Source: a virus
Taxonomy: Duplodnaviria; Caudoviricetes
IMG/VR virus record: IMGVR_UViG_3300033066_001917
Coordinates: 64,001 to 128,000 of that record
Direction: 5' to 3' (one strand)
Length of the DNA: 64,000 nucleotides
This document shows, in pieces, positions 30,353 through 35,944 of the stretch. The notes below the pieces were generated by a model that worked only from the letters and a program-made list of their open reading frames with translations, was not told the origin of the DNA and made no database searches. Position 1 is the first letter of the stretch, and each line of letters opens with the position of its first letter. The position numbers were made by a program, and so were the translations under genes.

Positions 30353-30376
30353 ATGTCTCTCTCTTTCCTTGCGGAG

Positions 30377-30449
30377 CGTGGCCGATGGGAGTCGAACCCA
30401 CTAACACCTGGATTTAGAATCCGGGCCCTTGCCGTTCGGGCACGACCAC
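30377..30449 (-). tRNA. amber suppressor tRNA, anticodon CUA
   Basis: Reverse complement folds as GTGGTCG-TG-CCC GAACGGCAA GGG-C-CCGGA TT CTA AA TCCAG-GTGTTA-GTGGG TTCGACT CCCAT-CGGCCAC-G. One C.A mismatch in the anticodon stem; no encoded CCA. Confidence 0.85.
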
Positions 30450-32971: not shown

Positions 32972-33508
32972 TCAAGTGCAGTTTTCTTCTTCAAGCAAAT
33001 TTGATTGAAGGATAGCCCCTATTGCTTCCACCTCGGTGAATTCCGAGGTGTCATAATTCCCCGATGTTATTCGTGCCACTAGTTCTTTGTTTCTTTTTTC
33101 CGCTTCTTCCAACTCTTGGGTCATCATTTCTGAGGCTGCAGCATGTGCGTCTTTAGAGGATTTAGCTGTGAGAACGTGGTGCCCATATCCATTAAGTAGG
33201 GCTCTCATTCTCCTGCCGCTTTCATTATCAATTGGACATTCCAGGGGGAATCTAAGCTCTCCGTGAATTTGTCGGTGGACGAGCCAGAGGTAACGGGGCT
33301 TCCCTTTTGTGTTGGTTCCGTTTGGAATGCGGATTATGCGGATTCCGGCTCTGTATTCCGCACGTGAAGTGACGTACACCTCCGTGTCCGCGTCAACCCG
33401 TTGGTCGCAGCAATCCTTATATATCTCTTCGGTAAGGTTTTTTTCGTACAATATGGCTTCATTCAAACTATGAAATTTAACCTCATCGAAATTGCGGAAA
33501 ATTCCCAT
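32972..33508 (-). CDS. hypothetical protein
   Basis: Long ORF with a C-terminal coiled coil; start uncertain (33508 vs 33556). Confidence 0.65.
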   Translation of the reverse strand: MGIFRNFDEVKFHSLNEAILYEKNLTEEIYKDCCDQRVDADTEVYVTSRAEYRAGIRIIRIPNGTNTKGKPRYLWLVHRQIHGELRFPLECPIDNESGRRMRALLNGYGHHVLTAKSSKDAHAAASEMMTQELEEAEKRNKELVARITSGNYDTSEFTEVEAIGAILQSNLLEEENCT

Positions 33509-33561
33509 GATATTCCTACCCCTTCCGAGATCATTTTGATTTTCAGATCGTAACAAATGCC

Positions 33562-34380
33562 ATGACTATTAAGATTGAGGCTTGTTATGTCAAAGGGGAC
33601 GAGGGTCAGTGGGTCACAATACCAGCCCCTGAGTTTTCTAGCCCCGAAGACGGGGGGGATGAGGCTTTAGCTCTTCAGGACTATCTCACCGCCTATTCCC
33701 CACCCAGGGAAGCGGTAGCCCTTCGGTTTACATCTGAATCCATACTGGCTTATGTTAGGATCCATCCCACCTATGGTATGGTCCCGAGATTTGAAGGTTA
33801 CGATGTTATCTGGCCCACAAATGAAGAGCTTGGTGGCATATGGACCACCCCACACGTTCTACCGGATGGCCATATCCTCCCGCTCAACTATGTCGAACCG
33901 GCCGAGAGATTCCAGATGGGGGACGATGAAAGCCCCAAGTCTGATCGCCGTGTAGTTGCGGTTGAGGGCCAATTTTTGGCAAAAACCGCAACCACTGTTG
34001 AGCAGTGGAACTGGTATGCAAAAGCAATAAATGACCCCAGTAAGGTGAAGCCAACCACAAACCAAGAGGGTAGAAGTATACTGGACCATCCAGTGACGGA
34101 AGTCAATTTCTGGGATAGTTTGGACTGGGCTGGGTGGGCTGGGTTGATCCTTCCTACTGAAGAGGAGTGGGAACGTGCGGCTCGGGGAAACGATGGCCGT
34201 AAGTATCCGTGGGGCAATGAACGTCCTACCACCGAGCTATGCCATTTCTCTACCCCCGAGGAAGAACAGACGGGTACGGCCTCCGTCTACGCTCACCCAA
34301 AGGGAATGGGTCCTTATGGGCATCTAGATTTGAGTGGAAATACTTGGGAATGGTGCAATTCCCCGTGGCGAAGAGAGTAG
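33562..34380 (+). CDS. FGE-sulfatase (SUMF1/CLec-fold) domain protein lacking the C-terminal RGG...GFR segment
   Basis: FQMG, HPVTEVNFWD, LPTEEEWERAARG.DGRKYPWG and PYGHLDLSGNTWEWC, then a stop 7 residues later. Confidence 0.85.
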   Translation: MTIKIEACYVKGDEGQWVTIPAPEFSSPEDGGDEALALQDYLTAYSPPREAVALRFTSESILAYVRIHPTYGMVPRFEGYDVIWPTNEELGGIWTTPHVLPDGHILPLNYVEPAERFQMGDDESPKSDRRVVAVEGQFLAKTATTVEQWNWYAKAINDPSKVKPTTNQEGRSILDHPVTEVNFWDSLDWAGWAGLILPTEEEWERAARGNDGRKYPWGNERPTTELCHFSTPEEEQTGTASVYAHPKGMGPYGHLDLSGNTWEWCNSPWRRE

Positions 34381-34384
34381 TCCC

Positions 34385-34535
34385 ATGGATCCACTTCTCC
34401 ACTTTACACTACGTGGAAATTTTGTTATCTCATTAGGTACGGAATACACGTATACTCGTTTCTCGATGTGTGGAAAACATTGAAGATGTGGGGTTCCGTC
34501 CATCCCAGCGAGGTTGGTTGAGGGTGGGGAAATGA
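34385..34535 (+). pseudogene. FGE C-terminal-like mini-ORF cassette 1 (one-base frameshift)
   Basis: MDPLLHFTLRGN...TRFSMC, then in the +1 frame ENIEDVGFRPSQRGWLRVGK*, whose TGA overlaps the ATG of cassette 2. Confidence 0.55.
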
Positions 34536-34663
34536 ATCCAGAATGCCTCCTCCGAGTTCGTGGAAATCCTTTTTTTAGGGTTCGTTTCTCCGCGAGCTAT
34601 CGCAGTCTAAAACTTGGCTTTAGAACATCACAACGAAGTTGGTTATGCCACTTTCGAGTGTGA
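34532..34663 (+). CDS. FGE C-terminal-like mini-ORF cassette 2 (43 aa)
   Basis: MNPECLLRVRGNPFFRVRFSASYRSLKLGFRTSQRSWLCHFRV, with an R-x12-GFR motif. Confidence 0.6.
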   Translation: MNPECLLRVRGNPFFRVRFSASYRSLKLGFRTSQRSWLCHFRV

Positions 34664-34708
34664 ATCCACATTCTGTCTTTTGCTTTATGCAGTTAGAATG
34701 AGCCAATC

Positions 34709-34921
34709 ATGGCGGCTAAAATGAATTATCAAGTAAGAGATAAAAGGATTCAAGTTGCAAGTAGGGGTGGTGGGTGGGGATCTGGTAGAATCCCACAGAT
34801 CCCATCGCGGAGGGATTATTGGTTGGCAGGGGTTCCGTCCATTGATGGAAGCGCGAGGTTATCACAGGTTGGATGGGTTTTACATTCCAAGGAGGTCCGT
34901 CAAATTGATGGCCTCCAGTAA
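34709..34921 (+). CDS. FGE C-terminal-like mini-ORF cassette 3
   Basis: VASRGGGW...RRDYWLAGVPSIDGSARLSQVGWVL, with RGGxW and R-x12-SAR. Confidence 0.55.
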   Translation: MAAKMNYQVRDKRIQVASRGGGWGSGRIPQIPSRRDYWLAGVPSIDGSARLSQVGWVLHSKEVRQIDGLQ

Positions 34922-35203
34922 CCTCTCCGGTTCCATTTTTTTGAGAATGCCTTTGGGGATCTCAACTTTTTTAGGGGCCGGGGGCGGTGGGGGAGGGGGG
35001 TTGGGGGCTATTACAGATGGTATAGGGCCAAGACTGCGAATAGTAGGTGTTCTCTTCCTAGCTTCTTGAATGATTCCCACCATGGCTTGACCGCACGGTT
35101 CACAATAAGAATGGAACTCACCCTCCCAGATGTCTACCTCAACCGTAATCGGATCAGTGTGGCAGGCTCGGCATCGTAATTTGGGGTCTAAAGTGTTTTT
35201 CAC
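34880..35203 (-). CDS. Zn-ribbon plus proline-rich protein
   Basis: CRAC...CEPC and poly-Pro; GTG start at 35203 after AGGAG. Confidence 0.6.
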   Translation of the reverse strand: MKNTLDPKLRCRACHTDPITVEVDIWEGEFHSYCEPCGQAMVGIIQEARKRTPTIRSLGPIPSVIAPNPPPPPPPAPKKVEIPKGILKKMEPERLLEAINLTDLLGM

Positions 35204-35230
35204 GGCTCTCCTGTTACGGTAATACCTATC

Positions 35231-35944
35231 ATGCCGAACCCATGGACGGATCAGGAAAAGAATACACTCAAAAAAGTCCTCGAAACCCGCAAGGCCCACA
35301 CGCTTGATTGGGTGAAGTTAAAGCAGGCGCTGCCTAAGAAGAGTCGGGATGCTATCTATCGGATGATTGGCGTTCTGGGACTACAGCAACGCAACTGGCC
35401 TGAAAAACACAAAGCCCTGTTGATTTCCTTGTGGGGTCAAGTGACTCCACGACAGCTCCGTAGTAGATTCAAGGACCTCTATTCATGGGACAAAGTTTTG
35501 AAGCAAGCTGACGGGCTTGGTTTATCTAGGGATCTTCCCAGAGGGATGGTTTCTATTCACTCTCTTGGGAAGAACCCTAAGTGGGGTTATGATTACGATC
35601 AAACTCTCCGGGTTCTAAAGTGGTCCGAAGTTCCGGTTCATAACTTCGCCTATGAGGGGAATCGACCGAGATACTGTGTGGACGAATTTGAGGCTCAGGA
35701 AGCGGCTGAGAATTGGGCCCGATCCGAATGCCTTAAAGATGCATCTCTTAGATTGGGTGTTCCCACCTACACAATCAGACGATGGTTGGAAAAGGATGGG
35801 CGGATCCTAAAGAACCGAAAGCATATCAGGTTCTACCCGAATGTATACGACGGTCTGTTGAAGAAGTATGGATCAACCACCCTCGGATCCCCCCAGAAGA
35901 AGAAGCAACAAATCTATCAGGATGGATGGCAAACCGCCGCCTAA
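35231..35944 (+). CDS. putative DNA-binding protein with Myb/SANT-like and HTH repeats
   Basis: PWTDQEKNTL and NWPEKHKALL repeats; ASLRLGVPTYTIRRWL HTH. Confidence 0.6.
   Translation: MPNPWTDQEKNTLKKVLETRKAHTLDWVKLKQALPKKSRDAIYRMIGVLGLQQRNWPEKHKALLISLWGQVTPRQLRSRFKDLYSWDKVLKQADGLGLSRDLPRGMVSIHSLGKNPKWGYDYDQTLRVLKWSEVPVHNFAYEGNRPRYCVDEFEAQEAAENWARSECLKDASLRLGVPTYTIRRWLEKDGRILKNRKHIRFYPNVYDGLLKKYGSTTLGSPQKKKQQIYQDGWQTAA

Follow-up and report, generated by a model that had tools for sequence, protein, structure and literature searches.

The window analysed here is a 64,000-nucleotide (nt) stretch, positions 64,001 to 128,000 of the virus record IMGVR_UViG_3300033066_001917 (Duplodnaviria; Caudoviricetes) in IMG/VR. 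On balance, a locus at positions 33562 to 34921 of the window is best explained as encoding a binding protein of the FGE/C-type-lectin (CLec) kind that occurs naturally in split form, where the tip missing from the product of a scaffold gene comes from coupled mini-genes, referred to here as cassettes, and the fold is completed in trans. The genes of the locus are as follows.

33562..34380, + strand: scaffold gene, 272 amino acids (aa), with a match to Pfam FGE-sulfatase (PF03781)
34385..34483, + strand: c1a, first piece of cassette 1, 32 aa, starting MDP and carrying an LRGN anchor
GTG 34470 or 34488 to 34535, + strand: c1b, second piece of cassette 1, in a frame different from that of c1a
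ATG 34532..34663, + strand: c2, cassette 2, 43 aa, MNP..VRGN..GFRTSQRSWL
GTG 34660..34701, + strand: stub 1, 13 aa, VNPHSVF.., with a GTGA overlap with the c2 stop
ATG 34698..34724, + strand: stub 2, 8 aa, joining stub 1 to c3 through two ATGA overlaps
ATG 34721 (66 aa) or 34709 (70 aa) to 34921, + strand: c3, cassette 3, SRGGGW..x26..GSARLSQVGWV

Evidence for a split protein comes first from the scaffold itself. The scaffold matches PF03781 with 85.4 bits (cut-off 23.3), and the match covers only profile positions 30-194 of 255, in agreement with an earlier note, made from the letters of the window, that had described the FGE domain as stopping short of its C-terminal segment. The protein ends in ...GNTWEWCNSPWRRE, followed by a TAG stop codon 7 residues past GNTWEW, and does not contain a complete FGE domain in one polypeptide (~positions 1-255, including the RGGSW..GFR end). 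It consists of an N-terminal beta-rich domain (~residues 1-119) and the invariant part of the FGE/CLec fold. An AlphaFold2 model of the scaffold has a pLDDT (predicted local distance difference test) of 86.5, with disorder confined to the last 12 residues. A Foldseek search with this model gave a probability of 1.00 to EgtB, to FGE and its paralogue, and to TvpA (2y3c), a variable protein of a diversity-generating retroelement (DGR).

Stronger evidence came from relatives of the scaffold. A search of 5.8 billion proteins yielded 25 further cluster representatives (P0002-P0026) of 158-343 aa, with 40-73% identity. The 20 scaffold relatives that were aligned all end 4-7 residues past GN[VT]WEW. 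No contiguous gene for scaffold and tip was found among candidates of 149-476 aa or among the relatives examined (28 gene calls and loci), and complete FGE domains were seen only among distant matches of the protein search. With a stop point common to the ~25 relatives and no contiguous gene in any of them, the truncation is a conserved, selected architecture rather than decay or misassembly. Cassettes lie downstream of the scaffold in every relative with readable DNA, so that the related phages sought by the earlier note, with an FGE gene cut at the same point and followed by an array, do exist:

L001/L002, 73% identity: seven cassettes, with ends of the form GFR..Q.GW[VLI]
L004: at least five cassettes, with ends of the GFRC or GWRC type (mostly GFRC[RI]R)
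L003/L172: one cassette directly past the scaffold stop, then further arrays

L172 is a 392-kb contig with one scaffold, and a profile search of the 20 kb surrounding this gene found 33 cassettes, 32 of them on the scaffold strand. At least 32 diverged cassettes on one strand fall within 12 kb downstream (L172:8000-20171), many of them called as genes of 50-62 aa with 4-nt overlaps.

The clearest view of how scaffold and cassettes are joined came from four IMG/VR phages of high GC content (L005-L008), whose scaffolds are 45-53% identical to that of the window. The stop codon of the high-GC scaffold overlaps the GTG of the first mini-gene, or in L008 lies 5 nt before it, and this mini-gene is followed by one to five more, of 55-60 aa each. 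Each cassette of L005-L008 and L003 has a ribosome-binding site (GGAAGGGAA or GGAAGGTGA in L005-L008), a start codon (ATG or GTG) and a stop-start overlap of 4 nt, in a series that begins at the scaffold stop, and the last mini-gene of a high-GC array overlaps the beginning of the ordinary gene that follows. The units measure 170, 173, 176 or 179 nt, each of the form 3n-1, as they must be if coding units are joined by a -1 overlap. The mini-genes start with M/V-(N/K/D/S)-P.., matching the NP.GP..RV.RGGSW stretch of the canonical domain, which places the cut in the long loop past WEW. High-GC cassettes match Pfam positions ~196-255 (E 5e-10 to 7e-3) and their scaffolds positions 12-198; when cassettes were taken from all clades, 11 of 29 had a stand-alone Pfam match. 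Moreover, public assemblies contain 39 stand-alone proteins of 47-94 aa of the cassette type that had been called independently. These alignments and gene calls indicate that the cassettes are probably genuine mini-genes encoding exactly the missing segment.

The number of cassettes differs greatly between lineages, with 10 to >30 in the related high-GC phages and 2-3 in the window. Each high-GC genome record has one scaffold and cassette arrays at three to seven places, and the single scaffold per record searched fits the earlier proposal of one scaffold accompanied by many cassettes. The first cassette of three of these phages (c0; L005:3828-3998, L006:3825-3995, L007:1966-2136) has the form ..GGGW..FRTHL.. 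and is not hypervariable. Its synonymous divergence (pS) is 0.05-0.09, compared with 0.22-0.43 for the adjacent scaffold, which hints at homogenisation or constraint at the nucleotide level; its ratio of non-synonymous to synonymous divergence (pN/pS) among L005-L007 is 0.5-0.7, from few changes. In the relative G004, the last cassette of an upstream array runs in frame, with no stop, into the scaffold, giving an open reading frame (ORF) of 356 aa (L090:6008-7075). This ORF, with its N-terminal cassette, is possibly a natural circularly permuted form.

In the window, the array is smaller and partly broken. The ATG of c1a lies 5 nt past the scaffold stop, and its frame reaches a TGA before the GFR motif. 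The remainder of the cassette, c1b, carries DVGFRPSQRGWL with the motif core EDVGFRPSQRGWL, and resembles the tail of cassette 1 of L001. The three mini-ORFs described by the earlier note do contain RG..GFR-type pieces, but the first of them is divided in two by a confirmed frameshift. The start of c2 has an ATGA overlap with the c1b stop and a ribosome-binding-like site, GAGGGTGGGG, upstream; c2 is intact and aligns with the family anchors, yet it is ~8-10 residues shorter between those anchors than other cassettes. Stub 1 is the leftover start of a deleted cassette. By position and alignment, c3 is the counterpart of cassette 7 of L001 (33% identity), and the cassettes at the two ends of the window array match those at the ends of the L001 array, first to first and last to last, in both position and motif. 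The tail of c3 overlaps the end of a convergent gene at 34880-35299. The linkage by ATGA and GTGA overlaps that had been noted earlier holds for four consecutive junctions, from c1b to c3, and includes the 8-aa stub, which was absent from the first list. A scan for promoters and terminators gave a total not above the shuffle expectation, and one terminator-like hairpin with a T-rich tail lies at 34656-34673 (+), exactly at the c2 stop and the start of stub 1.

The identity of the window cassettes was assessed with a cassette profile built from cassettes of other phages only. Among 2393 six-frame segments of the window, c1b, c2 and c3 were the top 3, and all three matches fall within 540 nt directly 3' of the scaffold. 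The alignment of c3 extends over profile positions 5-50, and the anchor motifs RG.. and GFR..Q..W are retained in the window cassettes. When a profile of the window and L001 cassettes was compared with one of the high-GC cassettes using hhalign, the two aligned from RGG to GFR with a probability of 90.5% (E 1.3e-6). The homology of the window cassettes to the FGE C-terminus is indirect, since it is linked through the profiles of other cassettes. As for the claim that the mini-ORFs resemble the missing C-terminal segment, cassettes of relatives match positions 196-255, and the window cassettes are tied to them through these profile links, with no direct Pfam match of a window cassette.

Strain variation at the locus provided evidence on whether the array is alive. 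Contigs from four wastewater and river runs, belonging to four different studies, were compared over 33400-35100. No insertion or deletion was found in c1-c2 in the contigs that cover this interval, and the c1 break is present in three independent assemblies; the lack of an indel in independent contigs indicates that the frameshift is genuine. There are zero substitutions in 34339-34714, while the scaffold has 3 to 11 differences per assembly, and its strain variants comprise 5 synonymous and 3 non-synonymous changes. In the c3 region, a diverged variant has 11 changes that, in the c3 frame, amount to 6 synonymous changes, 4 non-synonymous changes and 1 stop in the dispensable tail. The dN/dS (ratio of non-synonymous to synonymous rates) in this frame is ~0.2, whereas the synonymous/non-synonymous counts in the other two frames are 0/8 and 1/10. 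The excess of synonymous changes in the c3 frame only argues that c3 is a translated gene under purifying selection.

These data bear on the idea that the window holds a fossil array, a former DGR target that has lost its machinery, with decaying cassettes and a scaffold that acts alone or is itself being lost. In favour of this idea, the c1 frameshift is found in all assemblies, two stubs are present, 88 nt have been replaced in one strain, the window has 2-3 cassettes versus 7 to >30 in relatives, and the 200-kb record contains neither a reverse transcriptase gene nor a template copy. The idea is nonetheless unlikely: purifying selection is seen in the c3 frame, the strains differ in the scaffold but not in c1-c2, the RG.. 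and GFR..Q..W anchors have been kept, and the point at which the scaffold stops is conserved across clades that have diverged to 40% identity.

A second alternative is that the cassettes are silent donors, as in pilS or vls systems, with recombination or retrohoming joining a cassette to the scaffold in a subpopulation. Several features are in favour of this model. The cassettes are tandem and on the same strand with common anchor motifs, an exact 14-nt repeat is shared by c1b and c3, and one strain has an exchanged segment. In that strain, a wastewater strain from run X4, 34617-34704 (88 nt, comprising the c2 tail and stub 1) is swapped for 72 other bases. The repeat, GGGGTTCCGTCCAT, lies at 34490-34503 and 34829-34842; c1b reads it as V-G-F-R-P-S, and c3, using a different frame, reads it as A-G-V-P-S-I; the alternative frame of c3 spells ..GWQGFRPL... 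The repeat suggests that c3 is a chimera, or that it has undergone a past frameshift or gene conversion between cassettes. At ~34746-35048, two assemblies hold an allele far more diverged than in the scaffold, placing a recombination boundary inside the array. Nevertheless, a role as silent donors is highly improbable, as a joined form was seen in none of the relatives examined or in the window contigs, where no joint fusing scaffold to cassette was found. In addition, the cassettes have starts, ribosome-binding sites and stops of their own, all are in direct orientation with no long inverted repeats, and the nine neighbouring proteins scanned include no recombinase domain. The earlier note had allowed for joining by recombination; the lack of any full-length expression copy, together with the cassettes' own starts, speaks against that part of its proposal.

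Recoding could also unite the two parts: by amber suppression or a programmed frameshift, translation would continue from the scaffold into a cassette and give one polypeptide. The scaffold stop is TAG, and a transfer RNA (tRNA) gene with the anticodon CUA lies 3 kb upstream (30376-30449, - strand). This amber suppressor is labelled 'Pyl' by ARAGORN and is one of 37 tRNA genes in the record. Read-through of the TAG, though, would add 46 residues without an FGE motif before the next stop; the corresponding stop in the high-GC relatives is TGA in 3 of the 4 checked and TAG in 1 of 4; the shift needed would be +1 in the window but -1 in relatives; and no slippery heptamer was found at the junctions inspected by eye. 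Moreover, TAG ends 56 of the 238 long ORFs of the genome. For a few of the genome's TAG-ended ORFs, the frame stays open for 160-400 codons past the stop. Given the unrelated read-through sequence, the TGA in most relatives checked and the differing frame offsets, recoding was rejected and can be given almost no credence.

The relationship of the cassettes to DGRs was addressed with the high-GC family, as adenine-specific variation is the hallmark of DGR mutagenic retrohoming. The test covered the 105-nt stretch from RGG to GFRCA in 23 distinct high-GC cassettes, all of the same length. All 17 of the columns with a consensus A are hypervariable (minimum entropy 1.19 bits), while A is the base in none of the 47 invariant columns (Fisher p=6e-8). 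The first two codon positions account for most of the variation, and AAC is the consensus at variable codons. This signature indicates that diversification driven by reverse transcriptase acts, or has acted, on the high-GC cassette family.

The source of this diversification was sought in phage records and in Myxococcota genomes. No reverse transcriptase (PF00078) was found in the 200-kb record of the window or in the records of four relatives, a negative that applies to these records only, as all are 13-59% complete (that of the window ~38%), and a crude scan of seven further cassette-bearing metagenome loci found no reverse transcriptase motifs. The phage records of the high-GC relatives contain no template copy. 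When the high-GC cassettes were compared with a sample of 401 Myxococcota genomes, true DGR templates were found at six loci, with ~72% identity overall; four of the six have an adjacent ORF resembling reverse transcriptase by motif scan (IGNLTSQ/YMDD-type). These templates share the 5' and 3' ends of the variable region of the high-GC cassettes (at loci including L189-L192 and L194, four of these five with the reverse transcriptase-like ORF), and in the two aligned without gaps 23 of 36 variable columns are A.

No comparable signal was obtained for the lineage of the window. There is no second copy of window cassette DNA in the 200-kb record, and a search of the same 401 Myxococcota genomes for a template gave one 26-nt match (E 0.0045 per genome), which is at chance level. 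The window cassettes are too diverged from one another for the adenine test, they do not vary between strains in a way that would suggest mutagenesis, with no hypervariability of the array seen in the contigs, and the strain differences in c3 are not adenine-specific. Neither reverse transcriptase, nor template, nor population variability points to a DGR in the window lineage. Its cassette set evolves by ordinary divergence, deletion and recombination. The proposal that diversification proceeds without a reverse transcriptase is consistent with the five partial records and with the lack of hypermutation in the window, but it does not extend to the high-GC cassettes with their adenine signature.

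The Myxococcota templates are relevant to another model, where the mini-proteins act without the phage scaffold, either as decoys or competitors for CLec sensors of the host that are of the DGR-diversified kind or, at the level of DNA, as decoys for a host DGR. Consistent with this model, arrays are remote from the scaffold in relatives, and the templates, found beside ORFs with reverse transcriptase-like motifs identified by pattern, share variable-region ends with the high-GC cassettes at ~72% identity. Furthermore, among cellular DGRs, those of clade 5 act on conflict systems, whose CLec sensors they diversify (PMC10907252). Such a role is distinctly doubtful as a full account, because it leaves unexplained why the scaffold is cut exactly where the cassettes start and why the scaffold stop overlaps the first cassette start. 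In addition, a 45-60-aa piece of the FGE fold would be unlikely to fold alone.

Completion in trans, in comparison, is the most parsimonious reading of the locus. In TvpA-type DGR variable proteins, the RGGxW-GFR segment is the ligand-binding face and is hypermutated. The scaffold would encode the N-terminal domain and the constant four-fifths of the fold, stopping in the long loop past GN[VT]WEW, and the last fifth, from RGGxW to GFR, would be supplied by the separate, translationally coupled mini-genes. Each peptide of 43-70 aa would insert its strands into a scaffold molecule, completing the fold non-covalently, and one scaffold gene would thereby give rise to several binders with different tips. 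Coupling by termination and reinitiation would ensure that peptides are made beside fresh scaffold, with yield dropping along the array. The predicted split protein would have a role in binding a ligand. Physical completion in trans is the most likely arrangement, given a conserved cut, pieces that complement each other exactly and peptides with coupled translation signals of their own; it is further favoured because one scaffold serves many peptides and because at least one of the window peptides is under protein-level selection.

Structure prediction was informative in neither direction. A complex prediction with scaffold residues 110-272 and c3, both given as alignments, scored 0.01, and in an AlphaFold2 model of the ORF at L090:6008-7075 that joins cassette and scaffold, the cassette part has a pLDDT of 30-56.

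Several observations weigh against completion in trans. Scanned singly against Pfam, the window cassettes give no match even at E up to 10, and their E values with the cassette profile (c1b 0.023, c2 0.048, c3 0.076) are weak singly. The first cassette is frameshifted in all assemblies, and with c2 short and two stubs present, part of the window array may be non-functional. A run of four RTGA links was seen in 1.5% of 5000 dinucleotide shuffles and is only moderately unusual when taken alone. Lastly, the arrays that lie remote from the scaffold in relatives imply that co-translation is not required, and would allow another partner for the peptides.

A more far-reaching version of the split-protein explanation can be put forward tentatively. 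Here, the locus would represent a fragment-complementation repertoire, with one lectin-fold scaffold and from 3 to >30 tip peptides, each setting a different specificity. In some lineages, the tips would be rewritten by a DGR that is not carried by the phage and is possibly that of the host, and the window would hold a slowly evolving version of the same device that is independent of reverse transcriptase.

The expectation that the system is a binder rather than an enzyme follows from the cassettes themselves. The active site of catalytic FGE, both human and bacterial, includes a pair of cysteines in the C-terminal segment, directly behind RGGS. No cysteine is found in c2 and c3 between the RG.. 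anchor and the GFR/SAR motif; without the active-site cysteines, a binder is expected. The 200-kb record has one other FGE domain, which is complete and lies at the end of a 608-aa Cys-rich protein. Its gene is outside the window (G000:C1:182622-184445, - strand; locus L084), and the protein has a lipoprotein-like start and Cys-rich repeats. No template-like repeat was found near this gene, and c3 had no BLASTP match to the C-terminus of its product. The earlier note had also raised the possibility of more cassettes elsewhere in the genome, and none was found in the remainder of the 200-kb record. The neighbours of the locus comprise an AAA ATPase, PTH2, methyltransferases and unknowns, with no virion genes recognised. 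When 185,579 prokaryote genomes were scanned for members of the scaffold family, the matches were generic FGE domains alone, with at most 40% identity over residues 113-270; as these lack the N-terminal domain, they give no prophage or host lead for the family.

There are parallels between this locus and several known systems. Alternative tail-fibre ends are made by the G segment of phage Mu (Gin), the C segment of P1 (Cin) and the R64 shufflon (Rci), where parts are joined by site-specific DNA inversion, with cassettes in inverted orientation. These systems likewise have a constant N-terminal part and adjacent alternative C-terminal parts that set specificity, but the cassettes described here are all direct, each has its own start and stop, and no recombinase domain was found among the nine neighbours scanned. 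The antigenic variation systems Neisseria pilE/pilS and Borrelia vlsE require a full-length expression site and untranslated donors. They resemble the arrays in that partial gene segments are kept in tandem, each variable in its core and conserved at its flanks; one difference is that neither a full-length expression locus nor untranslated donors are found here. The proposed assembly is similar to laboratory fragment complementation, as with the LacZ alpha peptide or strand 11 of split GFP, where a single peptide supplies the missing strands. Here, the complementation would be natural and would draw on a repertoire of peptides.

There is also a parallel with the targets of DGRs. The cassettes correspond to the variable C-terminal segment of targets such as TvpA of Treponema denticola (2Y3C) and Mtd of Bordetella phage BPP-1, which have a common FGE-type fold, and the high-GC cassettes vary adenine-specifically, in a DGR-like manner. 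In known DGR targets, however, the variable region ends one contiguous gene, whereas here it is found in separate mini-genes, with many copies per scaffold; the phage records have no reverse transcriptase or template, and the window cassettes are not hypervariable. Cellular DGRs with multiple targets are similar in that one diversifier has many target sites, some of them remote, and in their AAC-rich templates. Treponema has seven non-adjacent DGR targets and Stenotrophomonas has eight tandem targets (PMC5758913), and clade-5 DGRs of multicellular bacteria have multiple or remote CLec targets (PMC10907252). In cellular DGRs, the cell with the reverse transcriptase also carries the targets, as full-length genes, in contrast to the ~55-aa mini-genes in phage genomes described here. 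DGR surveys report multiple, tandem and remote targets, and fragments that lack a reverse transcriptase but have an adenine history (PMC5758913, PMC4372165, PMC8144416, PMC10907252). The literature searched, these surveys included, yielded no target that is divided between one constant gene and a set of separate mini-genes for the variable region.

The window adds to this family a wastewater lineage of ~51% GC with a small, old, partly eroded cassette set that is not hypermutating. Because this lineage keeps the device without a sign of hypermutation, the split architecture appears to be separable from the retroelement. If the peptides complete the scaffold, variable regions of the DGR type can be stand-alone genes, which would be missed by surveys that discard short ORFs; in Roux et al. 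2021, targets of <300 nt were initially set aside (PMC8144416). Modular binders, too, would have a ready natural design here, with the specificity of a stable lectin scaffold set by a short peptide. For the phages themselves, completion of the scaffold by the peptides would amount to a third viral way to vary a binding protein, beside DGR mutation and DNA rearrangement, and by mixing protein pieces it would yield many specificities at once from one scaffold.

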